64,000 nt of DNA, taken from Clostridia bacterium. Lineage in GTDB: Bacteria > Bacillota > Clostridia > Oscillospirales > CAG-272. The position numbers were made by a program, and so were the translations under genes. Positions 3,988-20,589 of the stretch are shown in pieces. The stretch's first letter is position 1. Each line of letters starts with the position of its first letter. The DNA is taken from positions 1,929 to 65,928 of the forward strand of contig JAGATA010000031.1 of NCBI GenBank assembly GCA_017621475.1, read 5' to 3'. The notes under the pieces are model-generated. The model ran no database searches. It worked only from the letters and a program-made list of their open reading frames with translations, and was not told the origin of the DNA.

Positions 3988-4341
3988 CTAAATCGACCTC
4001 TCCTTTACTCTCAAATCGATCATTCTGCACACACCGCGCAGATTTTTTGTTATGTCCGAATTTGGAAAGCGCAACACCTCTATACCCAAGCTGTTCAAAT
4101 AATTTGTTCGCACAGCATCGTGGTGCTTACCCTCCTGCTCGTAATGCTGGGAGCCGTCAAGCTCCACGGCAAGCTTTGCCGCAGCACAATAGAAGTCCAA
4201 AATGTATGGACCTACCGTAACTTGTCGGCGGAACTGAATGGGGTGAGTTCGCAAGTATGCGTACCACAACTTTTTCTCTTGTTCCGTCATATTTTTCCGC
4301 AATTCCTGCGCATATGGCGTGAGATTTGAATTGTGTTTCAT
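3988..4341 (-). CDS. DUF559 / Vsr-like endonuclease-domain protein (117 aa)
   Basis: AAGGAG RBS then ATG 4341 (internal Met of the ORF-track frame 3988-4656). Sequence MKHNSNLTPYAQELRKNMTEQEKKLWYAYLR...FRRQ..VGPYILDFYC...LAVELDGSQH......D..R..YL...GIEVLRF.N matches the DUF559 pattern as I remember it. Confidence 0.8.
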   Translation of the reverse strand: MKHNSNLTPYAQELRKNMTEQEKKLWYAYLRTHPIQFRRQVTVGPYILDFYCAAAKLAVELDGSQHYEQEGKHHDAVRTNYLNSLGIEVLRFPNSDITKNLRGVCRMIDLRVKERSI

Positions 4342-4379
4342 TTCTTGCTCCTTTCGTTGTTCAACCTCATCCACCACTC

Positions 4380-4700
4380 CGAGAACCCCAAAATATGCTG
4401 ACGCATAATTTGAGGCCCCCGATCGCGGTCCCCCTTCCCCAGAGTGGAAGGGCCTACGGCACCACACTCGGTTAGAGTTTCGCGCCTGCGAGCCCCTCCC
4501 CGTTGGGGAGGGTGGTTGAGCGTCGCGAAATCGGGTGAGGTTCTTTTCCTCTTCAGTCCCTCGTGGGACAGCTTCCCCAGAGGGGAAGCCATTGCCTTCC
4601 CCTTTGCGTAAGCAAAAATTTGGGGAAGGTGGATTTTGCGAAGCCGTGCAGAGCAAAAGACGGAAGAGGTATTAGCCCCTACCTTATGGGGTGCGCCCTT
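4380..4700. repeat. Array of short GC-rich palindromes (same family as 3906-3978, 20640-20905, 61886-61923); includes the right arm of the 16-bp inverted repeat
   Basis: Palindromes of type CC(C/T)TCCCC-N3-5-GGGGA(A/G)GG near 4433-4452, 4493-4512, 4571-4589 and 4619-4632. GACGGAAGAGGTATTA at 4659-4674 is the inverse of 3909-3924. The ORF-track reading through this region gives low-complexity G/P/R/S sequence and is not credible coding. Confidence 0.75.
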
Positions 4701-7700: not shown

Positions 7701-9890
7701 TGTCGTTCTGTATTCCATTTCGGACATTGTTTCAAGCTCTTCTTCTGTCCAGATTCGGTTTGCGCCAACATAACCCGCAACCTCTTTTGTTTGGAGCTTA
7801 TCGTCGGAGTTTTCGCTCATATCGGGTTCTGTAACAGTGCCTTCAACAGGAGTGTTGCCCATATAGTAGTACCAAACATTTCCCGCGCCGTCTTTCTTGG
7901 GAGCAAAATAGACTTCCTGATCCTCAAAAACAGTATTCTCCATAATGGGGTTGCCATTTTCATCTACAACAGGATTACCGTTTTCGTCAACCTTGGGAGT
8001 TTGCGTGGTTACGTCGGTAACGTAAACCTGATATTCCGTGCCGTCTATAGTAACCTTAACGTCTATATAGGTATATACAACCTCGCCCTCGAGTGTAAGG
8101 AATGACTGCGGAGCGTTTGTACGAAGCCAAAAATCTATGGAAAGACCGTAAGTATCACGTGCAACGTAATCTCTTACAACCTCTTTGAAGCCCGATGCGG
8201 TTTTGGCATTGTCAATGTCACTCTTGATTATACATTTTGTCGTATCACCGGATGCATTTGTAGTAAGCTTGGCATTAATATAGGTAAAACCATTATTAGA
8301 TGCATTATCAATCAAACGATTCGCCAAACCAGACATAGAGCCAGCTACGGTTGCAGCCTTTGCTTTCAAAGACTCTGATTTGATTTTTATAGTAATGTAA
8401 TCTATTATAAGTGATCCTTTGCCAAAGCCAAAAAGCATTTTGTCAATACGCTCAATAAGGCCTGATTGAACTGTAACAGATGATTTTATATTGTCACCGG
8501 GCGTTTTTCCGAGCAAACCGAACAATGCCAAAGCTTCGGTGATCCCTAGTCCTTTTATCCAGTCATTAATAGTTTTGGAAGTACTTCCATCACTAAGTAA
8601 AACTCCGTCCTTTCCATCTATTGTAACAAGATAGTCAACTATCGGTTGTATATTGCCCCAAGTTACATTTGCGCTGCCAACTGTTTGACCGTCCTGGAAC
8701 GTAACGTAACCGTTGTCTTCCATACTTTTTATGCAAGATCTAAGTTTTGTTATATCAGCTATAAAGGGAAAAAGTGCGTTAAATTCATCATTAGATGCAA
8801 GCGCCGTATTAAGCTCCTCGTAAAATTTTTTGTTTGATGTACTTGAATTAACGTTTAATTTGTCTCCCGTAACAACACGTTCAAGACCTTCGATGTCGTC
8901 ACGCTTGTCGTTCATTTCCGCAAGAACTTGCTCCACAGTGGTGCAGAAAACGTCAACACTTTCAAATCTTTCGTACCCATCGATGCCATAAGTGTTTATC
9001 TGGTAAACCTCAAAAATATCGATAAGGGCTTCGCCGATGGGAACCATAACAGCTTCGTCCAAGAATACAAGGAGATCGTAAAAGCCCGCAACGTCATCGG
9101 CACTACATATAACAGTGTTATCAGCCCCTGTAAGAACACCGTCCGCGTAAGAGCTGAGCAAGCCGCCAACCGCCTGCATATAGCGATAATTAGCGCCGCT
9201 AACATTCAAACTAAGGAAATTGCCATTTGCTACGCCTGCATCTTGACCGGCATTACCCAAAGTTGTTTGGTATATAAAATCTTTTACACTATCCGTAGGA
9301 ACATCAACCTCAATATAATCTACAGAAGAAATAGCCTTTATTCCTTTTAAATGGCTTTTTGTGAATTCACTCGACTCAGAATTATACTGCGTATATTCAA
9401 AAGCGTTTATAAGTTCTTTAATACGTCCGTCCACGCCGTACGTTGCGGAATAGAGCGGATGCGCCAAAAGAGAACTTGTATTAAGCGTTGCAGGGCGCAG
9501 CGTAATATTTTCCAAGCCGTAAGAAGCATCCGAAAGGTTAACGATATTACCCCAAGTAAGGTTTTTCTGCGTTATGGAAAGCAAGGAATCACCTATGGCA
9601 GAAGCAGACGGAGGAATAGCAATTACGTTGCCGTCTTCATCAATCATAGGAGTACCATCTTCTTTCAGCAATATATCGCGTGCCAAGGCTATTTCCAAGT
9701 TACCGTTAGCGGCGATAGTGGTTGTCGCTCCGCTTACCTCAGGCGCTACGGAAAGTGTTATCCACGAAAAGGTGGAAACCGTCAGCATAGCAATGGAGAA
9801 AACAAATATCATAAGCGCCGCTATAACGCGCTCGCGGGCGCGTGGGAGCAAGGCTTTATACTTTTGTATTCTTAATTCTGTTTCTTTCAT
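4800..9890 (-). CDS. Giant (1696 aa) secreted fibre-subunit-like protein: SipW-type signal plus an N-terminal ~850-aa module paralogous to the 676-aa protein, then a ~840-aa beta-rich (Ig-like) extension
   Basis: ATG 9890 overlaps the stop of the upstream sipW-like gene (ATGA). N-terminus is basic, then hydrophobic, then STFSWITLSVAPEVSGATTTIAANGNLEIAL. Blocks shared with 18559-20589: NLTWGN(I/L), YGL, YG(V/S)DGRI. Internal motif ALVYLDGDVVSNDKVLSSSDIQGQLNLQF at about nt 7325-7430. No LPXTG and no C-terminal TM. Confidence 0.65.
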   Translation of the reverse strand: MKETELRIQKYKALLPRARERVIAALMIFVFSIAMLTVSTFSWITLSVAPEVSGATTTIAANGNLEIALARDILLKEDGTPMIDEDGNVIAIPPSASAIGDSLLSITQKNLTWGNIVNLSDASYGLENITLRPATLNTSSLLAHPLYSATYGVDGRIKELINAFEYTQYNSESSEFTKSHLKGIKAISSVDYIEVDVPTDSVKDFIYQTTLGNAGQDAGVANGNFLSLNVSGANYRYMQAVGGLLSSYADGVLTGADNTVICSADDVAGFYDLLVFLDEAVMVPIGEALIDIFEVYQINTYGIDGYERFESVDVFCTTVEQVLAEMNDKRDDIEGLERVVTGDKLNVNSSTSNKKFYEELNTALASNDEFNALFPFIADITKLRSCIKSMEDNGYVTFQDGQTVGSANVTWGNIQPIVDYLVTIDGKDGVLLSDGSTSKTINDWIKGLGITEALALFGLLGKTPGDNIKSSVTVQSGLIERIDKMLFGFGKGSLIIDYITIKIKSESLKAKAATVAGSMSGLANRLIDNASNNGFTYINAKLTTNASGDTTKCIIKSDIDNAKTASGFKEVVRDYVARDTYGLSIDFWLRTNAPQSFLTLEGEVVYTYIDVKVTIDGTEYQVYVTDVTTQTPKVDENGNPVVDENGNPIMENTVFEDQEVYFAPKKDGAGNVWYYYMGNTPVEGTVTEPDMSENSDDKLQTKEVAGYVGANRIWTEEELETMSEMEYRTTQGMGSCYTFYAEPGEKGQILDILKAFKVAFVDSNGTLLATASLATEYCFSEYGKYVVPLMLDENAIDTGEDTEEGDDIRAIMSLEQNVPTLITALVYLDGDVVSNDKVLSSSDIQGQLNLQFGNTYEPQPLDDEELMSETLKITAKVTDAQGKENPQFYFKDTEKSFTATVELSVEGEAPKTITANFLRKITTTQGTRGETIEFTQSASDPTKWTATATFTAPGEYILRSVFADGIERKLTNVVDTGNAEAVKVIVHGFSVSGFSGDPNLGLTHEYMTASDYVTESFSVNISAYENGTLTPGSVKGVFINEDNVAVTINFTETQSGSGRYTGTATFVSDGTYTLENIMVDGLYYSVGSTYTREVRTKLSVAVWLTHDDSCCDITEIEGEFEKVGNDYKFIFDRSHDFFVKMKVYDSTGQEIIGLVEPKLTYTKNATADLEWSTADGGCYVGYIPVDSVGEYKFVSASVNGENITKAISASVVTAISRDPAEFSNLILPSGEEVIVINGSNAQVAVGFKNGDSAIVYGLFEKEIEGATTKYLISAEKDTENEGYYIFTLPDEDGYWTLKEVYATNVAYRNAEGEIDFFQTDPLKPIFKGNGNAVEITDKVDEETSMTVEQMIETAASGYYFVVEDELANRNTTIKVIATYKLTHNIGANGGVQTVYGADVDATGKVTKKTGAFMESHNVNAIEFTITDFEGKQIANNVTLSLKKEMSTTKANGRYTYEAASTVEETLVTITSADNITFKGNALSLKIAGDYVPTATITLRDMNNTSFDVELPKLSVYSVTPSVKISAVSPSTSMGVDTSSDGKGYTTKTNSKTDTSATVYMECTIHETGLFTKTKRYCYQSSTVSIQLLNSGYASDATLSFGTGTPLYTTWYDSWGRGNYTSDGTNSYNWGENNTNKNGCDGEKTLYIGYSLYSSSELDYRNGSKTPAGTLTATELVLTYDGKEYVVPVSITINNPY

Positions 9891-10645
9891 TTTTCTGCCT
9901 CCCTTGAGTCAGCTTCATTCGGCGAATCTTCATTTGATTGCTGTTTGCCGTTTTCCGCTTCTATTTCAGCCAAAATTTCTTGTTTGAGCTTTTGGCGGAG
10001 CTCTTCGCGAAGCTTTTCTTCATCTTGTTCCCGCTCCGCTTCATTTATTTCCTGCTTAATAGCTTTAATTTCTTTCGTTATTTTTTTTATGTTTTCCTGC
10101 ATTATGATCGTTACAAGAATTATAACCGGCACGACCACTACAGAAAAAAATCCTATTTTATTCGTCAATATAGAATAAAGTGTTGTTATAAACCCCTCAG
10201 GGCGCAAGATCACGATTATCTTGCCTATAAAATTTTCCTTGGTTACATAAAATCCATCCACGCTGTTGTTTGCATCTCCGCGTGTTACGAGAAGCAATTC
10301 GCCGTCACGGTCCTTTATTTCCGCAACGCGGTGGGTTATTATCTGTCCCGCCATATAAGATTCGCGGGAGAAAAAGCTTATAATATCGCCTTCTTTAATG
10401 CTTTCTATATCCGTCTTTTGAGAAATTATAAGCGAGCCGACCGGCATCGTATCACCCATACTCTCGGAAACAACGCGAAACACGCTACAACCGAAAATAG
10501 TCACATAGCCGTTGGTCTTTATCTGATACATCACAGTGCCGCAGAATAAGATTGCAATGGCAAGCAAAACAGAAGTCGCTATGGAAAAGATTTTTTCCGA
10601 AAGTTTCCTTTCTTGCTTCGGGATATTCACTTCTTCTGTGTTCAT
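9887..10645 (-). CDS. sipW: SipW-type (ER/archaeal-type, S26B) signal peptidase I with C-terminal TM and charged cytoplasmic tail (252 aa)
   Basis: AGGAGAT RBS. N-terminal TM, then catalytic-Ser box VVSESMGDTMPVGSLII, His box QIITHRV and TRGDANNSVD, as in B. subtilis SipW (SGSMEP / THRI / KGDNN). Second TM FFSVVVVPVIILVTIIM, then ~65 aa of E/K/R-rich tail containing ELRQKLKQEILAEIEAE. Confidence 0.75.
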   Translation of the reverse strand: MNTEEVNIPKQERKLSEKIFSIATSVLLAIAILFCGTVMYQIKTNGYVTIFGCSVFRVVSESMGDTMPVGSLIISQKTDIESIKEGDIISFFSRESYMAGQIITHRVAEIKDRDGELLLVTRGDANNSVDGFYVTKENFIGKIIVILRPEGFITTLYSILTNKIGFFSVVVVPVIILVTIIMQENIKKITKEIKAIKQEINEAEREQDEEKLREELRQKLKQEILAEIEAENGKQQSNEDSPNEADSREAEK

Positions 10646-10677: not shown

Positions 10678-10705
10678 GTGCTTCTCCGCTTTCGCGGAGA
10701 AGCAC
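10678..10705 (-). terminator. Strong intercistronic hairpin (possible partial terminator or processing site) between the beta-helix gene and sipW-like gene 2
   Basis: GTGCTTCTCCGC-TTTC-GCGGAGAAGCAC, a perfect 12-bp stem. On the minus strand it is followed by AAGCACATTTTTGATTT, so the T-run is not immediately adjacent. Confidence 0.35.
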
Positions 10706-10721: not shown

Positions 10722-12995
10722 TTACACCTCTGTTGTCGGTTCTGTTATTTCTTCCGTTGATACCGCAGGTTCTTCGGAAGGTGCTGTTGTTACTTCTGCG
10801 GAAGTTGTTGCTTCCGTGGAAGTTGTTGCTTCCGTGGAAGTTGTTACTTCTGTAGAAGTTGTTACTTCTGTAGAAGTTGTTACTTCCGCAGTAGCTGTTG
10901 TTGTGGCTGTTGTTGTCGTTGTTTCAGCGGGAGCCGTTGTTGTCGTCGCTGCATCAGCAGAAGCTGTTGTGGTTGTCGATCCTTGGGAGGTTGTTCCCGT
11001 GGGAGCTGTTGTAGTTGTAGTTGTGGTTGTGCCGCTTGTAGATGAACCTGTATCTCCTCCTGTTGTAGAGGTCGGATTATCAAGATCCTCTATTCTATAA
11101 TCGCCGGCTTTCACCGCTGAACTGTTGTAGGTACAAGTATCGTGCTTAAATCCTATGTCGCCAACAACGCAGGTATCTGCAAAAGTATTGTTTTCTGCCT
11201 GAACATTAGTCTTACCGTTGACGTAGATAGCGGATTTATTGACAATGTTCTCGAAAGATGAGCCCGAAACAAAAAGATCTGCGCCGATATTTTTATCATC
11301 CGCAACTTTAAGACCGCCGTAGGAAGTGGAATTTCCGTCAAACGTACAGTTTTTAACGTAATAAGCGGGATATTCTCTTCTTCCGTACTCATTATCAAGG
11401 AATAAGCAATACATATTGATTCCATCTTCCTTAAAGTTGCAGTTTTCAAAACGAGCATCTCCGTACGTTACAACACCGCCGTTAAAATCGCAGTTCGTAT
11501 AAGTTACATCCTTTGCATAAGCATATGTATAAAGTGTGCCACGATTTGCGGTTGTTTCACAAGTATCATCGGCAGTTTTATTGTTGTTAAATACGATATT
11601 AGAGAAAGTCACGGTTGTGCCTGCTCTAACATCATTCACATAATCGTTGAGAGCATCAAAGTTAAATCCGGAAGTTGCTCTTACTTGACCCTGCCAAGCA
11701 TAGCCTGTAGCAACACTGTTGAGGTTTATCTCGGCTTTACCGCTTGCCGTAACCGATGAATCGGCACCTATAATATTGATGCTTACAGGATGTTCGCTTT
11801 CATCACCCTCTAAAACGGGAACACTTTGGAATCGTATCTCACTGCCGAGTATAACGTTATCGTGCAATATCCAAGTTTGGTTATCGGAAACGTAATTATC
11901 CGCGGCAAGCTGCGTGAACACGCCCCAAAGCTCGGCTTTGTTTTCGTCGATGATGGTGTAGTTGCCCGTTGTGCCAAGCACGATACGTCCGTATGACTTA
12001 TCCTGACCTTCGGGGAAGGTCTTGCCCGTTTGGGTAAGCTCAACTTTTTCGGTATTGCAATTTTTAACGACCATTTCGCCGACGTTCGCCGTGCCGACTA
12101 TCTCACCGATGCGCCAACCGCCGTCATCGGTGGATTTAAGTTTTGTATTTGTTACAGTACAGTTTTCCACAACGGTATATGTCCAAGGGTTGTTGCCCGC
12201 GTGACCGATGATGCCGCCAGCGGAGCCTGTTGCTTCTATAGTGCAGTTTTCAACTGAGCAATCCTTAACGGTAACGTAAGTTTTTACGGGGCCGTCATTT
12301 TCATTATTATAGCCCGCAGTCCAACCTATAAGGCCGCCCGTTCTGGAACCTTTGACCGTACTGTTTTTAAGGTGGCAGTTTGTAAGCGTTATTACGTCCA
12401 TAGAATCGGCATAATCAATAAACGCTCCGCTGCCGTTTGAGGTATTTGTGCTTGTAATATTGGAATTTGCGATGGTAAGGTTTTCTATAACTATACCCGA
12501 ACCGCCGGCAAAACCGCCCGCGAACAAGGGGTTCGTTAAGCGAAGACCTATTTCCTTTTTCTCCCCGTTTTCGTCTTGAGTGGGGGCGAGTATTGTGATG
12601 ATATCATCACCGTTCTGACCGTCAACTTGTATAGAAGGCAGCGTCATATTCTCTGCGCTTGCCATATCGATACTGTTAACTATCTTCATAGTAAGATTGC
12701 CGACATCTGCGTTATTTATATAGTTAACGATCCACCAAAGCTGTGCGCCGTTTTCTATAATATAAACGCCTTCCTCGTCTTGCTGTGGCTGTTGATCTAT
12801 ATTGCCTTCCCAGACTTCGTCAAATTCAAATTCCGGGAGTTTCCAAAGTTCTTTGCCTGCCACGCCGAATCCCGCTCCGCCTGTGCTCGGAGATGTGGAA
12901 ATTACCATCCAAGCATATGCCGAAATAACTATAAGTAAAACGGAAACCAGCAGGATATAGACAGATGAAAACAATCTTAACCAAGAATGTTTCAT
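10722..12995 (-). CDS. Secreted right-handed beta-helix-like protein with SipW-type signal motif and Thr-rich repetitive C-terminal tail (757 aa)
   Basis: ATG 12995 overlaps the stop of the upstream gene (ATGA). N-terminus LLVSVLLIVISAYAWMVISTSP. Repetitive N/T/G-rich turns with GGLIGW and AGGIIGH (GLUG-like) and repeated ..NC.(V/F).N.. rungs typical of parallel beta-helices. The last ~130 aa are >50% Thr with (E/A)VTTST repeats. No anchor motif. Confidence 0.6.
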   Translation of the reverse strand: MKHSWLRLFSSVYILLVSVLLIVISAYAWMVISTSPSTGGAGFGVAGKELWKLPEFEFDEVWEGNIDQQPQQDEEGVYIIENGAQLWWIVNYINNADVGNLTMKIVNSIDMASAENMTLPSIQVDGQNGDDIITILAPTQDENGEKKEIGLRLTNPLFAGGFAGGSGIVIENLTIANSNITSTNTSNGSGAFIDYADSMDVITLTNCHLKNSTVKGSRTGGLIGWTAGYNNENDGPVKTYVTVKDCSVENCTIEATGSAGGIIGHAGNNPWTYTVVENCTVTNTKLKSTDDGGWRIGEIVGTANVGEMVVKNCNTEKVELTQTGKTFPEGQDKSYGRIVLGTTGNYTIIDENKAELWGVFTQLAADNYVSDNQTWILHDNVILGSEIRFQSVPVLEGDESEHPVSINIIGADSSVTASGKAEINLNSVATGYAWQGQVRATSGFNFDALNDYVNDVRAGTTVTFSNIVFNNNKTADDTCETTANRGTLYTYAYAKDVTYTNCDFNGGVVTYGDARFENCNFKEDGINMYCLFLDNEYGRREYPAYYVKNCTFDGNSTSYGGLKVADDKNIGADLFVSGSSFENIVNKSAIYVNGKTNVQAENNTFADTCVVGDIGFKHDTCTYNSSAVKAGDYRIEDLDNPTSTTGGDTGSSTSGTTTTTTTTAPTGTTSQGSTTTTASADAATTTTAPAETTTTTATTTATAEVTTSTEVTTSTEVTTSTEATTSTEATTSAEVTTAPSEEPAVSTEEITEPTTEV
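10783..10890. repeat. Tandem 18-bp repeat, ~6 units, encoding the (E/A)(V/A)TTS(T/A) tail repeats
   Basis: Plus-strand units GAAGTTGTTGCTTCCGTG x2 (10801-10836), GAAGTTGTTACTTCTGTA x2 (10837-10872) and GAAGTTGTTACTTCCGCA (10873-10890), preceded by a degenerate unit at 10783-10800. Confidence 0.9.
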
Positions 12996-14803
12996 CCTGC
13001 CGCTCCATTCACCGTTTTCTCGCCGTTTTCTTCGTCTTCTCCTTTATAGTTTCGGCGGTAATTTATGCTTGATTCCAAGTTATTCATAAACAGCTCAAGT
13101 TCTGTGAGCTGTGCTTTAAGCTGTTCTCTGTCTTTTTCCTTTTGAGCTTCTTCCGCTATGCGGCGCTCCTCTTCTTTGCGTGCGCGTTCTTCTGCAAGAC
13201 GCGCTTTCTCCTCCGCTTTGCGGCGGAGTTCTTCTTGTTGTTTTTCCCAAAGAGCCTGCGCTTTTTCTTCTTCGAGGCGCTTCTTCAAGCGCTCGTTTTC
13301 TTCTTTTCTGCGCTGTTCCTGCTCTTCAAGTATTCTTGCCGCATCCTCAAACTCCTGCTTCTCTGCTTGAGAAAGACGAAGGTGTTCTTCTTCTTCTCTT
13401 GTTTCAAGGCGGGAGCTTATCTTGCCAAACAGAGCTTCAAGCTCTCGCTTGAAGATGTTGCCGCGGCGGTAATCTTCCATTTCGCGGCGCATACGCTCCG
13501 CTTTTATGCGCATTTCTTCCGCTTCTTTTTCTTTGCGGATGCGCTCTTCTTCTTTTTCTTTTTCAATGCGGATACGCTCTTCTTCTGCCTCTTTTTCGCG
13601 GCGCAGGCGTTCTTCTTCTTCTTTTCTGAGTCTTTCCTGCTCCTCTACAAGGCGGAGGCGTTCTTCCGCTTCCTCCTTCATAAGGTCGGATTTTGTAAGT
13701 TCTTCTATAAGCACCTTGCGCACCTCAACGTCGGGAAGGTCGTAATCTTCCGTAAGCTCTTCTATTATCTCTTTTATAAACTTGGGGCGAAGGGTGCGCT
13801 TCTTTCCCTTATTAGGTACTGAGACTTCCCTGCCCTTGTCCTCGTCGAGATAATTTTTAAGAACAACGTAGTTGAAAAGCACGCTGTGGAACACGTCCGT
13901 CTGCAAAGTTTCATTTACTTCCGGAGTTTGCTCTATTACGTTTATCGCATATCCGATATCGTCGTATTTCTGCAAAAACTCGTAAAGCTTTACTATTTCC
14001 TTATAGTACGGGTTTTTCTTCAAAACGTTTGTTTTCATAAGCGCGCCTTTTATACGAGTAGCCTTTGCAAGCGATTTCACAAATGGCGTTTCCATAAACG
14101 CGGTAAACAAACGGTTGAGTCTTGCAATACGCTCGAACGCTTCCCTGTGTTTATTGTCCGTGGAAAGTATATCGTCGCGCTCCTTGATGTGCATAAACAT
14201 ATCCATATGGATATTTTCAGTCGTAGCGGTTATATCCGTGGAGAATTTGAGCTTCGCGCCGAATTCGTCCGACATCGCACCGAAGAGTGCGTCGTAACGT
14301 ATTCTTACAAAGCGATATGCGTTTTCAATAACCGTTATAACAAGCCTGTTTTCGTAAAGCTCCACGGTGTCCTCGCGCAGCTTCTGCATAAGCTTGTTGG
14401 GGCGGACGTCGCCCGTTTCCTCGTCGAAATTCTGTATCATAGAGGAGCCGTGCTGTGCCAGATGGCGAACAACGGAGGAATCGCTCTTTTTAACGTGAGC
14501 AACGTCCACGATGAGTTCGTCCTCTTTAATAATGTTTCGAGGAGAGGATATAATGTGTTGGATCGCAGGAAGCGCCGATTCTATGGAATCTATCCAAGTG
14601 AAATCCAAAAGCTTTTCCATTCTGCGGTTGGAGAACTGGAATTCATTGTGCGCTCCCGCGAGCTCGTTCATAAAATACTCATAGAACTCGGTACTGGAAA
14701 GCGCGCGTATCACGCTTTTGGTATATTTAAGATATATCGAATCAATCAGCGATTTTTTCTCGCTTTGTTCGTTTTGCGGGGTATTGTAAGGTGATTCTGA
14801 CAT
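12992..14803 (-). CDS. Partner protein of the McrB-like NTPase: ~370-aa globular N-domain (possibly McrC/DUF2357-like) plus ~230-aa E/R/K-rich single-helix or coiled-coil region; no nuclease motif seen (603 aa)
   Basis: AAGGAG RBS 6 nt before ATG 14803. ELYENRLVITVIENAYRFV resembles the ENR motif of McrC/DUF2357-type proteins (weak, from memory). Residues ~375-600 are uninterrupted charged helix (EEAEERLRLVEEQERLRKEEEERLRREKEAEEERIRIEKEKEEERIRKEKE...). The stop overlaps the next gene's ATG. Confidence 0.5.
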   Translation of the reverse strand: MSESPYNTPQNEQSEKKSLIDSIYLKYTKSVIRALSSTEFYEYFMNELAGAHNEFQFSNRRMEKLLDFTWIDSIESALPAIQHIISSPRNIIKEDELIVDVAHVKKSDSSVVRHLAQHGSSMIQNFDEETGDVRPNKLMQKLREDTVELYENRLVITVIENAYRFVRIRYDALFGAMSDEFGAKLKFSTDITATTENIHMDMFMHIKERDDILSTDNKHREAFERIARLNRLFTAFMETPFVKSLAKATRIKGALMKTNVLKKNPYYKEIVKLYEFLQKYDDIGYAINVIEQTPEVNETLQTDVFHSVLFNYVVLKNYLDEDKGREVSVPNKGKKRTLRPKFIKEIIEELTEDYDLPDVEVRKVLIEELTKSDLMKEEAEERLRLVEEQERLRKEEEERLRREKEAEEERIRIEKEKEEERIRKEKEAEEMRIKAERMRREMEDYRRGNIFKRELEALFGKISSRLETREEEEHLRLSQAEKQEFEDAARILEEQEQRRKEENERLKKRLEEEKAQALWEKQQEELRRKAEEKARLAEERARKEEERRIAEEAQKEKDREQLKAQLTELELFMNNLESSINYRRNYKGEDEENGEKTVNGAAG

Positions 14804-14836
14804 ACCGAGCTCCTTTCGTGATGTATCAATAATTTA

Positions 14837-16411
14837 TCAGTTTACTTTTTTGAGGTATTCGATGTAATCCTTGCAAATGCTCATTGCGTTCTTGCCGAAG
14901 AGCTTATCAAGGTATGTGGAGAATTTTGTGAGTTCTTCTTTCATAAATCCAAGGCTCAAGGACTCGAATTTACGCAAAACTTTCTTTGCTACCATAAAGT
15001 CAACGGCTTCTATTTCCGTACCGCCGCAGGCGATGTAGCAAGGAACATAATCTTTAAGCTGTTTCATAATACGGTTACCGAAAGCAAGACGGAAATTCGC
15101 GATAAGATATTCGTTCATCTGCTCGAGCTTCGCCATTGTATCTTCGGAAACAGTATAATTTTCTTTTGCTTCCTTAAACATTGCATTAAGGTGGTCTGTG
15201 GAAATTGTGATAGCTTCTGTTTCCTCTGCTTCAAAAGCATCCGCACGGGTATCAAGGTCGATCGGAATAGCACGGTCATAAACCTTATCGGCAACGGCGA
15301 AGGTAGAGTCGTCGTTGTTGATAGTACCGATGAACCATACGTTGTTCGGTATCTGAACCTTACCGTTTTCGATAAGGCAGGGGTCGTTATCCCACATAGC
15401 GGAAACGATGTCTATAAGCCATTCTTCCTGGCGGGGCATTTCGAGGATGGAGAGCATTTCCGCGAAGTAATATTCAACGCGGGCGATGTTCATTTCATCG
15501 AGAATTATGAGGTTGGGGTCTCTGTAATAGTTGGATTCGTAAATTGTACGAAGGAAATCTGTTTCGGTATATTTTTTTGTAAATTCGTTGAAGTAACCGT
15601 AAAGCTCCGTACGTTCACGCCAAGCAGGCTGAACGGAAACAACGGTGGAGTCTTTCTGAACAAACTTACCGAAAGCGTACGGCAAGGACGTTTTACCTGT
15701 ACCGGAAATACCCTGCAAGATAATGATTCGCGCCGTACCGAACGCGGCTATAAAGTGTCTTATAAGCTTGAGCTCATAGTAAAGATGGAGCTTCGATGCC
15801 GCAAAGTTGCGGAAGCGTTCGCAGAACTGAGGTAGGGTTATGTCGTTATCGTAAACGGGATATTGATATTCCGTCTTGTAAAAGTTATCCACAGAAGTAA
15901 GGCGGAAGAAGCGGCTCGTTGTGGGGTCAACACACGGAGAGAGAGGTGTGTTGCGGTTGGGGTTTGCGGAGGAAAACTCTGCTTCCTCCCCTTCCTTTTC
16001 TTCTTCGGGAAGTTCCGCTTCGCCGGGCTTGCCGCCAAGCTCTGCCAAGCGCATTGCAAGAAGCTTATCTTTTTCGTAATTTGCACGGATAAGCTCTCTC
16101 TGCAAGTTTTTGACCTGCTTTTCCATTTCCTCAAACTTTTTAACGGGAACGCGGAAACGGAATACGCGGCGCAAAAGCTTCACAAGAAGTATCACCAGCA
16201 CGATTATCAGCGCAATGAGCGCGATGTTCGCAATAAGGAGAAGTATCCAGTCCGTTCTCGTGAACTCGCTTTCGTTCGCCTTGATGATCTCCATTCTGCC
16301 GGGGAAGTTCAGCAAGCGCACCAAGAAATCCCATATCGCGCCGAATATATCAAGGAAGGCGTAAAACACCATCCCTATATCCTGAATAAAATATCGCAAA
16401 AAATTATCCAT
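14837..16411 (-). CDS. Membrane-anchored McrB-family (AAA_5) AAA+ NTPase, probably a GTPase (524 aa)
   Basis: AGAGGAG RBS 7 nt before ATG 16411 (track TTG 16417 less likely). N-terminal TM WILLLIANIALIALIIVLVILLV, short coiled coil and an acidic linker. Then Walker A ILQGISGTGKTS, Walker B LIILDEMN with ARVEYYFAEMLSILE, FIGTINNDDST (NxxD-like) and DKVYDRA. This is the motif set of McrB-type NTPases. Confidence 0.7.
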   Translation of the reverse strand: MDNFLRYFIQDIGMVFYAFLDIFGAIWDFLVRLLNFPGRMEIIKANESEFTRTDWILLLIANIALIALIIVLVILLVKLLRRVFRFRVPVKKFEEMEKQVKNLQRELIRANYEKDKLLAMRLAELGGKPGEAELPEEEKEGEEAEFSSANPNRNTPLSPCVDPTTSRFFRLTSVDNFYKTEYQYPVYDNDITLPQFCERFRNFAASKLHLYYELKLIRHFIAAFGTARIIILQGISGTGKTSLPYAFGKFVQKDSTVVSVQPAWRERTELYGYFNEFTKKYTETDFLRTIYESNYYRDPNLIILDEMNIARVEYYFAEMLSILEMPRQEEWLIDIVSAMWDNDPCLIENGKVQIPNNVWFIGTINNDDSTFAVADKVYDRAIPIDLDTRADAFEAEETEAITISTDHLNAMFKEAKENYTVSEDTMAKLEQMNEYLIANFRLAFGNRIMKQLKDYVPCYIACGGTEIEAVDFMVAKKVLRKFESLSLGFMKEELTKFSTYLDKLFGKNAMSICKDYIEYLKKVN

Positions 16412-16445
16412 TGCCAAACTCCTCTTTGTTCTCTATCGGAGGCTC

Positions 16446-17300
16446 TTACTGCTCCGTTTTGTCTTTGTTTTCGTCTTTATTCTCGGCATCCGTCGCGTTC
16501 TGCTTTGCGATATCTGCCATAAGCTCTGCTTTGAGCTTCTCGCGCAATTCGGCTTCTATCGCCGCCCTACGAATTTCGTCTCTTTCTTTTTCGTCTTTGA
16601 TCTGTGTTTCAATGAGGTCTTCCGTTCTGCCTCTTTCCTGCTCGTACTTGATGAGCATCTTCACGTTCTGGTACTCAAACAAAACGCGGAAGAACTGTAC
16701 AAGGTGGAATATGAAGAATATAAGCACGGGGATGATAACAAGAAGGAAGAAGCCCGTGGACGTCTGGAGGTAGTCAACCACTTTGCCAAGACCGGGGATA
16801 CGCATTCCCGTCCATTTGCCGACAACGTCGGCTGCGTGGACGTTGTTATAGTCGGCGGTTCCTGCTTTATCGCCCGATGTCTGGAAGGATGTGAAGTTGT
16901 TTATGCTTTCGGGGTAAATAGCCGTAATTCTATGGGTGTTAAGGATAAGCTGGCCCTGTTCATTTGTCCAGAAAGTGATAACATCACCAACCTTGAGCTT
17001 TTCAACTTCTTCGTTGTTTTTGATAGTCGTATCGATAATAAGGTCTCCCGGTTTAAGCGTAGGGTACATAGAGTCCGTCTGAATAGAAAGGAAGCTTATG
17101 CCGAAAATGCTGGGAATTCCGCTGCCGGATGTGGAAACGAAAGAAATATACGTGGAAAACGCTGCCAAAACGATTGCCACTATCAACAGCACGTTAACGA
17201 CAATGTTTATTATCTTTTTGACGTCTTTTTTGTTTTCCTTTTTGTTTGTAGCCGCGCCTGCATCCGTGGGGGCGGCGTTTGTTTCGATTTTATTTTCCAT
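16446..17300 (-). CDS. sipW: SipW-type (S26B) signal peptidase I, second paralog, with C-terminal TM and long charged tail (284 aa)
   Basis: AGGAGAG RBS. N-terminal TM IVVNVLLIVAIVLAAF. Ser box LSIQTDSMYPTLKPGDLII, His box LNTHRITAI, and SGDKAGTAD. C-terminal TM FFLLVIIPVLIFFIFHLV, then ~85 aa of E/K/R-rich tail containing ELREKLKAELMADIAKQ. Confidence 0.75.
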   Translation of the reverse strand: MENKIETNAAPTDAGAATNKKENKKDVKKIINIVVNVLLIVAIVLAAFSTYISFVSTSGSGIPSIFGISFLSIQTDSMYPTLKPGDLIIDTTIKNNEEVEKLKVGDVITFWTNEQGQLILNTHRITAIYPESINNFTSFQTSGDKAGTADYNNVHAADVVGKWTGMRIPGLGKVVDYLQTSTGFFLLVIIPVLIFFIFHLVQFFRVLFEYQNVKMLIKYEQERGRTEDLIETQIKDEKERDEIRRAAIEAELREKLKAELMADIAKQNATDAENKDENKDKTEQ

Positions 17301-17361: not shown

Positions 17362-18378
17362 TTACTTAATTTCATCTTCTTCAAGGCCTGTATCGGGTTT
17401 TCTTTCGGCGTGGAATTGCACGTTTGCAAGCATCATTGCCTCTTTTCCGATTTCGTTGGTGCAGTCAACATCTTGACCTTCAAGCCAAATATATATATCT
17501 ATCTTTGCGGTGCAGTTTTTATCAAGGTCGAAAAGATGGTTGTCATCCAAAAATTCGCCGTAATCAAAAACCACAACTCCTTTTTGCACAGGATTTGTCT
17601 CCAACCAAGCGGTGGATTCCTGCCTTATAAGGCGGTCTGCGGGAACAAGACTTTCCGTGCCGTCCATACTCGGGGTCGGTTCATAATCAGTGGTATAATC
17701 GAGGTGGTTGTCACAGTTTGGCTCGTATATTATAAACAAGGGTTCTTCATCTATTTGTTTGCCATCCGGGTCGAAGCGCGTAACACGGAAACCAATTCTC
17801 ATTGCGCTTTGTGCGCCCTTGCCGCCGTTGTTGTGAATAATTTCTTCATCGTTCCAAACGGGCGTGCCGACAAGGTACGTGCCGGAATTTTCTATATTTT
17901 TGGAAAGCTCCACTTCAACGTCCTCGTCCGTGCGGGCATAAACGGTAAAAGCAACGTAATACCCTTCCGCATCCTCGCGGTTAGCGTTTTGAGCGTCGTT
18001 AAGCTCTTTGGAAATGGAAGCTATTCTGCCATCCAAACCGAAGTTTGTGGCGTAAAAGGTTTTGTTTATATCTGAATAAGTAACGGGTTTAAGCGTGGAA
18101 TTTTGCGTAAATTTTTTGTTATAGTCGAGGTGCCACCCCCAAGCTTCCTCGTCATCGGAAAGCTCCCAGGATATTTGCAAGCCGACGCTGCTGTTTACAA
18201 AAACAGCCATATCGTTTACTTTTGGAGTTTTACTCAAAGAAAACCAGGTGTATGTAGCGGTGGAGAGTAAAACAAGCAAAACAAGCATACCGTATAAAAG
18301 CTTTATAAATATGTGTCTGCGCTTTTTTTGTTTTGGTGTGGAAATTGCTTGTGAGCTCAATTTATTTTCTCCTTTCAT
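17362..18378 (-). CDS. Secreted TasA-like-motif protein, small paralog (338 aa); candidate minor fibre subunit
   Basis: N-terminus KKRRHIFIKLLYGMLVLLVLLSTATYTWFSLSKTPKV (SipW-cognate-like). C-terminal motif IDIYIWLEGQDVDCTNEIGKEAMMLANVQF. Internal block EGYYVAFTVYARTDEDVEVEL parallels ERYFAYTFYIRNDGASTVGY of the 348-aa protein. The RBS is weak. Confidence 0.55.
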   Translation of the reverse strand: MKGENKLSSQAISTPKQKKRRHIFIKLLYGMLVLLVLLSTATYTWFSLSKTPKVNDMAVFVNSSVGLQISWELSDDEEAWGWHLDYNKKFTQNSTLKPVTYSDINKTFYATNFGLDGRIASISKELNDAQNANREDAEGYYVAFTVYARTDEDVEVELSKNIENSGTYLVGTPVWNDEEIIHNNGGKGAQSAMRIGFRVTRFDPDGKQIDEEPLFIIYEPNCDNHLDYTTDYEPTPSMDGTESLVPADRLIRQESTAWLETNPVQKGVVVFDYGEFLDDNHLFDLDKNCTAKIDIYIWLEGQDVDCTNEIGKEAMMLANVQFHAERKPDTGLEEDEIK

Positions 18379-18558: not shown

Positions 18559-20589
18559 TTAGCCTTGGCCGCCAGCGCCTGCGCCGCCACCTTCACCGCC
18601 CTGTGCGGGGGTCTGGTTCTGAAGAGGTGCGTAAGGCATAGGTGTAAGTGTCTTGTCAGAGCTGAACTGGAGGTTAAGTGTACCAGTCATAGAAGAAGCA
18701 GCATTTGCTACCATTGTGTTGTCAACAAGGTCGCCGTCAAGGTAAACGTATGCAGAAAGACGAGTTGCTTGATTCTTTGTAAGAGCCATAATTTCAGCTT
18801 TACCGGATGTGCCGTCATCTTTCCAGCTAATAGTTTCAGTAGCTCCTTCGCCTGTTGTAGTAGTAATCTTGATACGATAATCGTGGTTTTCGCCTGTTCC
18901 TTTGTCTTCAAAAGTAAAGTTGCAAAGTCTTACATTTGCCGTTACCTCTGTACCAACTACAGCTTCATTTTCGGTATCAAGAAGACCAACAGCTACAATG
19001 TTACCCGAAGCATCCGTGAAAACGATACGAATAGCAGACATAAGTTCAAGAACATTCGCTGTTGTAAAGTCGGTTGTCAAAGATTCAAAAGTCATCGTGC
19101 TGCCGTGACCCATTGTTTCCTGAGAGCCGCCCTCTGTGTAGATACGGTTTACAGGATTTGTCTGAAGCATAAGTTTAGAGTCAGCCGCATTTGTACGGAA
19201 AGCAAGGTCAACAACATAGCCATAGAAGTCTGTGAGCTTAGGAGTAGAGCTTGTATTGGAAGAAGGTCCCTTTGCAGGAACAGCAGCGTAAATGTCATAT
19301 GAAACAGTTACTTTCGTTGTCATTCTCGCAGCCATATTATCAAGAGCCAAACCACCGTATTCAATTTTTTCGATAGTAACATCTGCGCTATACTCGCCGC
19401 AAACCTTAGCTATATTAGAATATACGCCACCGTTATCATCCAATTCAACAAGAACGCCTTGCGAGGCAACCTTACTAATAATGTCGCCTAAATTGTTTTT
19501 AACGTCATTTGCAGCATAGCCATTCAGCTTTGCACCTTCAATGTTTACAAGATCTGTATCAATCAAAACGTCTGAAACTTCATCCCAAGTTACCGCCGTA
19601 ATATCATTGTTGTGAGTAGTTTTTACTGTTGCCAATGCTGTTCCAGCATTAGTTATAGCCGTTGCATTGATTGTATATTGAGTATATGCATCTTTTACTG
19701 CTTGAGGAATTGAATTATACCAAGCCGTACCCTCAGCCATCAACGCAGAAAGTCCTTGTGTTTCCAACGCCGCCTTTGCCGTGCCATAATCATTTTCTGG
19801 CGTAGTTTGATTAGCAATAGCAAAAACTGCAACTATGTAAGCGCGTATTGCTTTTTCAATTTCAGCATTTGCTGCTCCAAGCTGTGTTATAAGGTTATCA
19901 GCGCAAGAAAGGTCGTAAGTAGTAGTACTATCCTCCGTAGCCTTTTTAGAAAGAATACTTGCAAGTGCAGAACCATTCGCCGTCAAAGACTGAGCAGCTT
20001 TTGTTTTTGCGGAATCAACAGCTGTGGAAATTTCGTATTTAGCATTACGGAAATCCATCTGTTGCTGGGACATTGTTGTGGATGTACCAATAGCACGAAC
20101 GCCGTAGTCGTCATTCTGCAAGAACGACTGTGTCTGCGTATCATACGTAGCCAATATTGTATTAGCGGTAAGTGTTGAAATTCTACCGTCAGAACCATAT
20201 GTAGGCGTAAGCAAAGGAAGCGATGCCACCTGATAATCCGTGCCGCTAAGACCAATATTCAGTCTTGACGGAAGCAAAGACACCTTAGAAAGTCCATAAG
20301 CTTCGTGATTGAGGTCAATAAGGTTACCCCAAGTAAGGTTTCTATCAACCAATGCCTTGGTGCTATCATTAACAGTAGAATCCGGAATAGTTTCAGACCA
20401 AAGCGCGATTTCAAGGTTACCGTTAGCACCTACAGCTGTGTAGATACCCGTTACTTCGGGCGCTGTGGAAAGTGTAAACCACGCGTAAGACGAAGAAATA
20501 ACCATAAAGAACGCAACCAAGAGCATAGCAACTGCTGCCATAAGTTTACTCTTGATGTTTAAAAAACTTTTTTCACGAGTTTTTTCCAT
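18559..20589 (-). CDS. Secreted TasA-like-motif protein (676 aa); candidate major fibre subunit, paralog of the N-terminal half of the 1696-aa protein
   Basis: AAGGAGAG RBS. N-terminus KSKLMAAVAMLLVAFFMVISSSYAWFTLSTAPEVTGIYTAVGANGNLEIAL. C-terminal AYVYLDGDLVDNTMVANAASSMTGTLNLQF, followed by a Pro- then Gly-rich tail ...TPAQGGEGGGAGAGGQG. Ala/Thr-rich and Cys-poor composition typical of extracellular proteins. Confidence 0.6.
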   Translation of the reverse strand: MEKTREKSFLNIKSKLMAAVAMLLVAFFMVISSSYAWFTLSTAPEVTGIYTAVGANGNLEIALWSETIPDSTVNDSTKALVDRNLTWGNLIDLNHEAYGLSKVSLLPSRLNIGLSGTDYQVASLPLLTPTYGSDGRISTLTANTILATYDTQTQSFLQNDDYGVRAIGTSTTMSQQQMDFRNAKYEISTAVDSAKTKAAQSLTANGSALASILSKKATEDSTTTYDLSCADNLITQLGAANAEIEKAIRAYIVAVFAIANQTTPENDYGTAKAALETQGLSALMAEGTAWYNSIPQAVKDAYTQYTINATAITNAGTALATVKTTHNNDITAVTWDEVSDVLIDTDLVNIEGAKLNGYAANDVKNNLGDIISKVASQGVLVELDDNGGVYSNIAKVCGEYSADVTIEKIEYGGLALDNMAARMTTKVTVSYDIYAAVPAKGPSSNTSSTPKLTDFYGYVVDLAFRTNAADSKLMLQTNPVNRIYTEGGSQETMGHGSTMTFESLTTDFTTANVLELMSAIRIVFTDASGNIVAVGLLDTENEAVVGTEVTANVRLCNFTFEDKGTGENHDYRIKITTTTGEGATETISWKDDGTSGKAEIMALTKNQATRLSAYVYLDGDLVDNTMVANAASSMTGTLNLQFSSDKTLTPMPYAPLQNQTPAQGGEGGGAGAGGQG

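Follow-up and report, generated by a model that had tools for sequence, protein, structure and literature searches.

The 64,000-nucleotide (nt) stretch of a Clostridia bacterium analysed here (contig JAGATA010000031.1, positions 1,929 to 65,928; hereafter the window) encodes a 524-amino-acid (aa) McrB-like AAA+ GTPase with a transmembrane (TM) anchor and, in the McrC position, a 603-aa partner with a DUF2357-like domain. We consider it very probable that this pair belongs to CoCoPALM as described by Bell et al. (eLife 2024, PMC11090510), a class that has a name but is essentially uncharacterised. Judging from gene content and gene order, the pair appears to be a fixed core component of a SipW surface-protein locus, and not an inserted defence module. 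This assignment to the surface locus is favoured because the synteny is collinear, the AAA+ protein is the most conserved product, the same core recurs in Acholeplasma and Bacilli, no nuclease was found in the partner or its neighbours and the flanks consist of housekeeping genes. A functional linkage of the pair to SipW-dependent surface-protein biogenesis is likely, and with moderate confidence we interpret the pair as an McrBC-derived membrane GTPase module that is tied to SipW-dependent surface-protein or fibre biogenesis. All genes of interest are located on the minus strand, and coordinates are window positions.

Synteny and phylogenetic reach of the locus

We compared 84 related loci. 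Three long contigs and 80 species-representative genomes were examined, and all 80 genome loci stem from uncultured gut or rumen Clostridia (Oscillospiraceae, Acutalibacteraceae, Faecousia, Vescimonas and Angelakisella). The 84 loci share a single collinear, same-strand gene order with the consensus giant protein - G02 - HD_5/EAL - G04 - G05 - G06 - SipW - AAA+ - partner - (variable gene) - SipW - giant protein, in which the fixed synteny spans 10-12 genes. The best-conserved gene across the loci is that of the AAA+ protein (61-75% identity), compared with 49-68% for the first SipW paralog (SipW1), 45-66% for the partner and 25-60% for the secreted proteins. Packing is tight, with gaps of 34 nt between SipW1 and the AAA+ gene and 33 nt between the AAA+ and partner genes, and with 4-nt overlaps. 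SipW1, which had correctly been recognized upstream of the pair in the original prediction, has homologues in all of the loci except three short contigs (L012, L019 and L042), where the contig ends no more than ~270 nt from the AAA+ gene. The second paralog (SipW2) lies two genes downstream, and matches of its type are present in nearly all loci. On a larger scale, at least 553 matching stretches were confirmed in species-representative genomes, matches to the AAA+ protein number more than 8000 clusters at 90% identity (the top 120 all being at least 69% identical over the full length), and a search with the N-domain of the partner gave 1620 matches.

The reading favoured previously was an McrBC-derived motor recruited to the membrane to export or assemble the neighbouring giant proteins. 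Whereas synteny and conservation support the tie of such a motor to the SipW locus, the giant proteins do not hold up as conserved clients. The stop codon of the partner gene does overlap the ATG of the beta-helix gene (ATGA, junction sequence gcaggATGAaac), this gene is present in only about 7 of the 84 loci, and minimal loci of Acholeplasmatales are devoid of giant proteins altogether. What accompanies the pair consistently is instead the SipW duo, a bitopic protein of the G04 type, cyclic di-GMP (c-di-GMP) enzymes and proteins of ~300 aa that carry an xAWF signal motif. Of the suggested co-occurrence with sipW and TasA-like genes only the first half was recovered: SipW is present nearly throughout the 84 AAA+-anchored loci, and the secreted proteins of the window could not be placed in the TasA family with Pfam, NCBIfam or PDB profiles. 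The window flanks contain housekeeping genes (ClpB, EF-G, cardiolipin synthase and CarB), no integrase or mobile element was seen in the window neighbourhood, and Pfam revealed no nuclease domain in the genes next to the pair. One Acutalibacteraceae metagenome-assembled genome (MAG), JAZNED01, harbours two paralogous loci (L080 and L081) with AAA+ proteins that are 65% and 56% identical to that of the window. Since both loci share one MAG, the locus can be duplicated within a genome.

Deeper relatives were retrieved by an exhaustive search of 50%-identity representatives, which yielded 760 AAA+ proteins at E<=1e-30. Classification of the best 150 of these 760 showed that the N-terminus contains TM segments in 87 (single-pass, polytopic or with an extracellular domain) and that 49 are TM-less, E/R/K/Q-rich proteins of 700-870 aa that are CoCoNuT-like. 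The sequence GT.NxD is carried by 124 of the best 150 representatives, the next residue being D in 91 and E in 28. A clade that is 43% identical over the full length comprises Acholeplasma hippikon (complete genome), Paracholeplasma and Bacilli MAGs, and the AAA+ identity for A. hippikon and the Bacilli MAGs amounts to 43-51%. The locus of A. hippikon, a cultured wall-less Mollicute (L085; LR215050, 1428569-1450104), and the related locus L086 share the order GGDEF/EAL x2 - G04-like - two ~300-aa STFAWFTL proteins - SipW - AAA+ - DUF2357 partner with a K-rich coil - SipW. In a third locus, L087, the contig starts within the G04-like gene, and upstream c-di-GMP genes would fall outside it. L086 and L087, i.e. 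two of the three loci, are minimal versions that lack giant proteins and run straight into unrelated genes. In a sister clade of polytopic-TM proteins from metagenomes, SipW is encoded immediately upstream in 27 of 41 well-flanked loci, and proteins with an FAAWI motif are encoded nearby.

The GTPase, its partner and the SipW tails

The AAA+ gene starts with the ATG at 16411, as 39 orthologues begin with MDNF and a GAGGAG ribosome-binding site is located 7 nt upstream. An alternative TTG start at 16417 is spurious, since it disagrees with the orthologue N-termini and with the position of the ribosome-binding site. The orthologues are 61-82% identical over the full length, and the McrB/AAA_5 motif set that had been proposed for the protein is present and invariant in 39 of them. 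GISGTGKTS represents Walker A (aa 234-242), LIILDEMN is Walker B with D305/E306, GTINNDDST provides N365-N-D367-D368, and DKVYDRA contains R380.

When the Protein Data Bank (PDB) was searched with phmmer, the sole sequence matches were to E. coli McrB (6hz4, 6ut6 and 7vsr; E=2e-4 to 5e-4, aa 228-387). The NCBIfam McrB equivalog model gave E=1.6e-4 and 20.6 bits. Since this score is far below the cut-off of 637, the protein is evidently not an McrB orthologue, and the relationship appears to be weak but specific. Pfam AAA_5 stayed under its gathering score, whereas the PADLOC candidate profile PDC-M26A matches the AAA+ core with E=3e-44 (aa 209-335, profile positions 314-440 of 724). Foldseek with the AlphaFold2 (AF2) model retrieved RavA (6q7l and 3nbx), MCM, Vps4 and dynein as top matches and McrB at rank 49. 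The structural comparison thus supports only membership in the AAA+ superclade, and the McrB assignment is based on sequence, motif and partner.

A TM helix, a short coil, an acidic linker and the lack of a DNA-binding N-domain had all been proposed for this protein, and hydropathy, alignment and AF2 bear them out. Contrary to what had been stated, the TM helix is not at the very start of the protein, because a conserved amphipathic segment of 55 aa comes first. This N-segment, which shows a weak hydrophobic peak at aa 12-31, is conserved in the Clostridia orthologues and in Acholeplasmatales. The TM helix itself has a 19-residue mean Kyte-Doolittle hydropathy of 3.4 and is followed by RRVFRFRVPVKK. 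Because this stretch is rich in K and R, the AAA+ domain is predicted to be cytoplasmic by the positive-inside rule. In the juxtamembrane helix, N111/Y112/E113/K114/D115 are invariant. A homology of the N-terminus to FtsB/DivIC was not recovered with Pfam hidden Markov models (HMMs), which returned only generic TM-plus-coil families, e.g. DUF948 with E=0.0036.

The partner gene has an AAAGGAG ribosome-binding site, and its product is 53-72% identical to its orthologues. The postulated ENR-type motif is found as Y150-E151-N152-R153, which is invariant in 43 orthologues. A DUF2357 fold had been suspected in the N-terminal part, and DUF2357 was in fact detected in orthologues above the gathering score: Pfam DUF2357 (PF09823) is matched by 16 of the 43 family members scanned (the window protein and 42 orthologues). 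Ten members that were run individually scored 24.7-36.2 bits against a gathering score of 23.3 at aa ~31-208. The window partner itself has no Pfam match, DUF2357 falling below reporting, and its AF2 model shows beta-hairpins at 52-66 and 183-206 in the DUF2357-like region.

The claim that the partner has no nuclease signature stood up to HMM, PDB and AF2/Foldseek searches. No nuclease family matched any of the 43 family members in Pfam, and the middle domain (aa 209-375) had no Pfam match at E<=10. A cryptic nuclease was rejected after Pfam searches of the window protein, orthologues and sub-fragments (E<=10), PADLOC (E<=10), phmmer and profile searches of the PDB and Foldseek gave no signal. 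The partner has no PADLOC match of any kind even at E<=10. Foldseek against the PDB returned nothing below E=0.4 for the partner model, a result of little weight given the mean predicted local distance difference test (pLDDT) of 64.8. As the AF2 model shows a single strand in aa 210-375, a PD-(D/E)xK core is absent from this prediction.

The C-terminal part had been described as a continuous ER/K single helix of ~230 aa. The alignment instead reveals two ER/K segments that are split and trailed by conserved amphipathic segments, and one unbroken 230-aa alpha-helix was rejected on account of the interruptions at aa 450-466, 485-492 and 565-580. Conserved hydrophobic columns are found at 450, 451, 455, 458, 462, 466, 485, 491 and 492; the first ER/K segment has few conserved hydrophobic positions.

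Both SipW paralogs exceed the TIGR02228 cut-off of 51.85 (SipW1 with 77.5 bits and a SipW match at E=2e-30, SipW2 with 88.5 bits). Since both contain the SM..P, THR and GD.N motifs, whose residues we take to be catalytic, they are predicted to be catalytically intact. The cytoplasmic tails of both (window 16446-16600 for SipW1 and 9887-10060 for SipW2) share a conserved helical motif, approximately E-[RK]-[MIL]-R-x-E-[LIV]-[LM]-x-E-[LM], that is common to Clostridia and Acholeplasmatales and also occurs in the SipWs of L085-L087. Examples are IEAELREKLKAELLADM and ERIRAELIEELKQ from Clostridia as well as EKMRQELLAEM and ERLRQEVMKEL from Acholeplasmatales. This motif is a candidate docking site for the coiled coils of the GTPase and its partner.

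Known systems, a possible mechanism and its alternatives

The architecture is not new, as it was already named CoCoPALM by Bell et al., who devoted three sentences to it and deferred the analysis to a forthcoming paper (PMC11090510). By their description, an NxD-type GTPase is fused to an FtsB-like TM and coiled-coil domain. No other McrBC-related paper searched contains the term, further description or experiment, the text supplements of Bell et al. hold no details on CoCoPALM, and a search for literature on PDC-M26 found none. The window pair shares with this class an NxD-type McrB-like GTPase, N365-N-D367-D368 reading as NxD with another D behind it. In the HMMER alignment the motif falls on N-T-A-D of E. 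coli without a gap, so that the motif alone cannot prove a one-residue deletion. Further likenesses are the SipW signal peptidases that adjoin the pair in the window, in the 84-locus set and in Acholeplasmatales, and helices on both proteins, with helix 90-124 on the GTPase and the ER/K and amphipathic segments at aa 376-580 on the partner. As regards the FtsB-like N-terminal domain, the GTPase has a TM helix followed by helix 90-124, and homology to FtsB was not reproduced with Pfam. No feature of the pair speaks against the class. The three published sentences give no anatomy, to which the present analysis adds a fixed synteny, two SipWs with a tail motif, xAWF clients, a G04-like anchor, a c-di-GMP link and the occurrence in Acholeplasma.

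With E. coli McrBC (6hz4, 6ut6 and 7vsr) the pair has in common an AAA+ core with Walker A, Walker B and the Asn signature as well as a DUF2357 partner encoded adjacently downstream. It differs by the TM anchor in place of an N-terminal DNA-binding domain, by ER/K helices and the lack of a PD-(D/E)xK nuclease in the partner, by the signature N-N-D-D (NxD branch) versus N-T-A-D in McrB, and by a secretion/surface locus as its context, not a restriction-modification or defence island. Because both a DNA-binding domain and a nuclease are missing, the pair is predicted not to be an McrBC restriction enzyme. CoCoNuT systems (CnuB/CnuC) belong to the same NxD branch, with 38-46% identity over the core among representatives, have coiled coils fused to their subunits and often have McrC homologues without an active nuclease. 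CoCoNuT GTPases carry long TM-less coiled-coil N-termini (700-870 aa), whereas the window GTPase is TM-anchored, and CoCoNuTs are always accompanied by HEPN or another nuclease, none of which was found in the window operon. For both reasons the pair is not assigned to CoCoNuT. PDC-M26 is approached only through the match of the AAA+ core to its component A, and since the partner has no PADLOC match the pair does not qualify as a full PDC-M26 system.

The tapA-sipW-tasA operon of B. subtilis and sipW-bsaABC of C. perfringens resemble the locus in that an ER/archaeal-type SipW is encoded beside secreted substrates. The window substrates are not recognisable as TasA, camelysin or BsaA by HMM, and the resemblance is limited to the xAWF motif; the aromatic motif xAWFxLS at the end of the signal anchor may be compared with what is presumably the TasA motif, ...TWAAFND. 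The window furthermore has two SipW paralogs with long cytoplasmic helical tails. We know of no McrBC-like GTPase pair in the SipW operons of Bacillus and C. perfringens, whereas here such a pair is embedded between SipWs. A precedent comes from C. perfringens, where the SipW-operon protein BsaC requires the type IV pilin PilA3 for its secretion and some type IV pilus-associated genes are needed for BsaA oligomers to be secreted efficiently (bioRxiv 10.1101/2024.11.04.621531). To the type IV pilus and type II secretion machineries (PilB, PilC and PilD) there is a functional analogy only, i.e. a membrane NTPase hexamer, a dedicated peptidase and N-terminally anchored substrates with a processing motif. 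The NTPase would be an McrB-type AAA+ protein and not PilB/GspE, and the peptidase an S26 SipW and not an A24 aspartyl peptidase. Unlike in type IV pili, the motif is placed at the C-terminal end of the hydrophobic segment; because of this position, the xAWF anchor is probably removed and not retained.

On these grounds we regard it as fairly probable that the pair derives from an McrBC type IV restriction GTPase and has lost both DNA-directed parts. In the McrB-like subunit, the DNA-binding N-domain would have been exchanged for a membrane anchor and coil, with the AAA+ ring on the cytoplasmic face of the membrane. In the McrC-like subunit, the DUF2357 N-domain would have been kept and the nuclease exchanged for a ~230-aa stalk of interrupted ER/K helices. 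In McrBC, the N-domain of McrC plugs the hexamer pore and stimulates GTP hydrolysis. Here, the DUF2357 partner would activate a membrane-tethered GTPase hexamer, which in turn would couple physically to the SipW peptidases, and possibly to the N-tails of the precursors, by way of the juxtamembrane coil, the amphipathic segments of the partner and the helical C-terminal tails of both SipWs. GTP-driven cycling might then gate or power a step in which the xAWF proteins are processed, extracted from the membrane or polymerised into a surface structure, a step for which the trio of ATPase, platform and prepilin peptidase of type IV pili could serve as an analogue. We infer an export or assembly role of the pair from this setting, and we put forward a specific motor or gating mechanism only tentatively. 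Rather speculative is the still broader notion that CoCoPALM constitutes a nucleoside triphosphate (NTP)-driven surface-filament or secretion machine of Bacillota including Acholeplasma, in which a GTPase hexamer, an McrC-N pore shaft, coupling through SipW tails and c-di-GMP control would make up an analogue of the type IV pilus built from unrelated parts.

Several points weigh against this interpretation. The 84 loci were retrieved via the AAA+ gene, and SipW/xAWF loci lacking the pair would escape such sampling. On four metagenome contigs (L088, L091, L144 and L160), a polytopic-TM McrB-like GTPase and a DUF2357-like protein are encoded as a pair among housekeeping genes, and no SipW was detectable within 9 kb of these pairs; the membrane-anchored pair can therefore work in other contexts. 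We know of no requirement of TasA-type fibres for cytoplasmic energy. For G04, G05, G06, G10 and G12, no signal of TasA, camelysin or pilin families or of TIGR04088 was obtained with Pfam, NCBIfam (including N-terminal fragments at E<=10) or PDB profiles, and with the secreted proteins unassigned to these families the terms fibre and pilus are an assumption. The nearest TM-less relatives are CoCoNuT-like with predicted defence roles, and the GTPase core matches a candidate defence profile of PADLOC. The AF2 models have mean pLDDT values of 64.8 (partner) and 71.5, i.e. moderate confidence, and the mechanism and the complex are deduced from genes and predictions.

Among the alternatives, a regulatory GTPase switch survives best. 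The pair would then be a scaffold that responds to c-di-GMP or GTP and sequesters or releases the SipWs or localises the apparatus, e.g. to the septum by an FtsB-like TM and coil, with no mechanical work involved. Such a role would suit the c-di-GMP enzymes (HD_5/EAL or GGDEF/EAL) that open the locus in both lineages, the ER/K helices, which resemble spacers as in rulers or tethers, the docking suggested by the conserved SipW tails, and the FtsB-like homology of the N-terminal fusion reported by Bell et al. (PMC11090510). However, Pfam detected no c-di-GMP-binding domain (e.g. PilZ) in either protein, the FtsB/DivIC homology was not reproduced with Pfam HMMs, and the catalytic core is so extremely conserved that active NTP turnover is favoured, though this would be compatible with a switch or a motor. 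On balance we judge a switch of this kind to be unlikely.

The second reading of the original prediction, an inserted membrane-associated defence module, fares less well. It would regard the pair as a CoCoNuT-like McrBC derivative for defence or abortive infection that senses invading nucleic acid or a fibre-attacking phage and acts through a non-nuclease effector, e.g. by shutting down SipW-dependent display or by disrupting the membrane. The PDC-M26A match (E=3e-44), the TM-type pairs found elsewhere without SipW, and the 49 TM-less CoCoNuT-type proteins among the 150 nearest representatives, for which Bell et al. predicted restriction or defence, point in this direction. Yet a CoCoNuT without the McrC nuclease always has a nuclease next to it (PMC11090510), and here the partner and the genes adjoining the pair yielded neither a nuclease nor HEPN or any other effector domain; the partner also lacks a PADLOC match at E<=10. 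The fixed synteny and the AAA+ protein, which is the most conserved across genera and into Acholeplasmatales, are unlike patchy, fast-evolving defence islands, and the neighbourhood is of the housekeeping type (ClpB, EF-G and CarB) with no integrase or mobile element seen. On the basis of synteny, conservation and housekeeping context, a defence island was rejected as the main explanation, and we consider a defence module quite improbable. A generic MoxR/RavA-like AAA+ chaperone, which would act in the cytoplasm and mature the very large secreted proteins ahead of their export, might be suggested by the Foldseek ranking (RavA, MCM and dynein on top, McrB 49th) but is very improbable, since the likeness is at the fold level only, the PDB sequence matches are to McrB only, the partner is a DUF2357 and not a VWA/MIDAS protein, the NxD(D) signature marks the McrB branch specifically (PMC11090510), and the minimal Acholeplasmatales loci keep the pair without giant proteins.

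Other genes of the locus and implications

The xAWF(T/S)LS signal-anchor motif is conserved across several secreted proteins of the locus (Table 1). The giant 1696-aa protein has homologues in most loci (25-48% identity), and its cytoplasmic N-region M[RK]ETExRIxxYxxxLPxxxE[KR] is conserved as well (window 9820-9890; orthologues in L003-L024). Sequence conservation is uncommon in the N-region of signal peptides, and a cytoplasmic factor may therefore recognize this tail. G04 has a conserved cytoplasmic N-domain of ~75 aa, lacks the xAWF motif and shares a C-terminal WLEGxDxDCTN motif with G06; it is possibly a membrane anchor or base. The 3' end of the HD_5/EAL gene overlaps the start of G04 by 8 nt, and since GGDEF/EAL genes hold the equivalent position in the Acholeplasmatales loci, a control of the locus by c-di-GMP is suggested.

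Table 1. Positions of the genes, domains and motifs of the locus in the window
Feature	Position	Strand	Basis
HD_5/EAL-type (c-di-GMP-related) protein, 488 aa	21962..23428	-	Pfam HD_5 and EAL in orthologues; conserved in loci
G04, bitopic membrane protein, 348 aa	20923..21969	-	Open reading frame (ORF); homologous to G04-like genes of L085 and L086
G05, secreted protein, 676 aa, SSYAWFTLSTAPEVTG...GANGNLEIAL motif	18559..20589	-	ORF; conserved in loci
G06, secreted protein, 338 aa, ATYTWFSLS motif	17362..18378	-	Conserved in loci, 34-59% identity
SipW paralog 1, 284 aa, long cytoplasmic C-terminal tail with conserved IEAELREKLKAELMADI	16446..17300	-	NCBIfam TIGR02228; tail alignment
Probable CoCoPALM GTPase, TM-anchored McrB-like AAA+ protein, 524 aa	14837..16411	-	ORF; phmmer PDB; PADLOC; orthologues
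Conserved N-terminal amphipathic segment, aa 1-46 (MDNFLRYFxQDIG...)	16274..16411	-	Conservation; AF2 helices 2-34 and 36-46
Transmembrane helix, aa 56-78	16178..16246	-	Kyte-Doolittle; K/R-rich flank; AF2 helix 52-84
Juxtamembrane coiled-coil-like helix, aa 90-124, KQVKNLQRELIRANYEKDKLLAM	16040..16144	-	Conservation; AF2 helix 90-124
Variable acidic linker, aa 125-152	15956..16039	-	Length and sequence differ among orthologues; pLDDT below 50
AAA+ core, aa ~190-390	15242..15844	-	Near-invariant block; aligned to McrB AAA+ aa 34-195 of 6hz4
Walker A	15689-15712	-	Within AAA+ core
Walker B	15494-15511	-	Within AAA+ core
N-x-D-D motif	15308-15319	-	Within AAA+ core
C-terminal helical lid, aa 391-524, and stop codon	14837..15241	-	AF2 helices 405-523, pLDDT 83-94; conserved
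Partner, DUF2357 N-domain, helical middle domain and ER/K helical tail, 603 aa	12992..14803	-	ORF; orthologues
DUF2357 (McrC N-terminal)-like region, aa ~31-208	14180..14713	-	Pfam in orthologues; AF2; invariant residues
Helical middle domain, aa 209-375, conserved	13679..14179	-	AF2 helices and one strand
ER/K segment 1, aa 376-445	13469..13678	-	ERK fraction 0.63-0.73; 0.43 opposite-charge i/i+4 pairs per residue
Amphipathic heptad-like segments, aa 446-494 (RRGxLF..E...F; FEDAAxLLEE)	13322..13468	-	Conserved hydrophobic columns
ER/K segment 2, aa 495-560	13124..13321	-	ERK fraction 0.49-0.71; 0.35 opposite-charge i/i+4 pairs per residue
C-terminal amphipathic helix, aa 565-580, and tail	12992..13123	-	Conserved L569, F572, L576, I580
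Variable beta-helix/GLUG secreted protein, 757 aa, translationally coupled to partner	10722..12995	-	Pfam GLUG
SipW paralog 2, 252 aa, cytoplasmic C-terminal tail EKLREELRQKLKQEILAEIE	9887..10645	-	TIGR02228; tail alignment
Giant secreted protein, 1696 aa, signal motif FSWITLSVAPEVSG, conserved cytoplasmic N-tail	4800..9890	-	ORF; orthologue comparison

Between the stop codon of the beta-helix gene and the ribosome-binding site of SipW2, a perfect 12-bp GC-rich hairpin (GTGCTTCTCCGC-GAAA-GCGGAGAAGCAC, window 10678-10705) is followed on the coding strand by AAGCACATTTTTGATTT. This hairpin may be an internal terminator or attenuator that divides the cluster into two transcription units. The C-terminus of the beta-helix protein (window 10780-10910) is a Thr/Ser/Glu/Val-rich tandem repeat (TTSTEVTTSTEVTTSTEATTSTEA...), the DNA of which appeared as repeated stem-like structures in the terminator scan; the repeat is probably an O-glycosylated or stalk-like linker. 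Directly downstream of the cluster are genes for a DUF559 (Vsr/REase-like) protein and a BspA-type leucine-rich-repeat protein (window 3988-4656 and 2102-3889, respectively), of which the former has a counterpart in none of the 84 related loci and the latter in only four. An unusually long plus-strand ORF of 1690 aa (24869-29941) runs antisense to the gene of a 2041-aa giant protein (24716-30841, minus strand). As homology and synteny back the minus-strand gene, the plus-strand ORF is probably a shadow ORF.

The locus offers several experimental handles, namely the tail motifs of the SipWs, the amphipathic segments of the partner, the N-tails of the precursors and the c-di-GMP enzymes at the locus head. 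The cultured carrier A. hippikon and the minimal L086 and L087 loci are potential experimental models for the deferred CoCoPALM question. SipW/TasA-style surface-protein systems are currently thought to assemble without cytoplasmic energy, and the present reading, if true, would add an energy-consuming step to them. If the linkage is functional, an McrBC restriction motor would have been exapted into the envelope biogenesis of very abundant, mostly uncultured gut Clostridia, and this would be the first non-defence role for the McrBC family.

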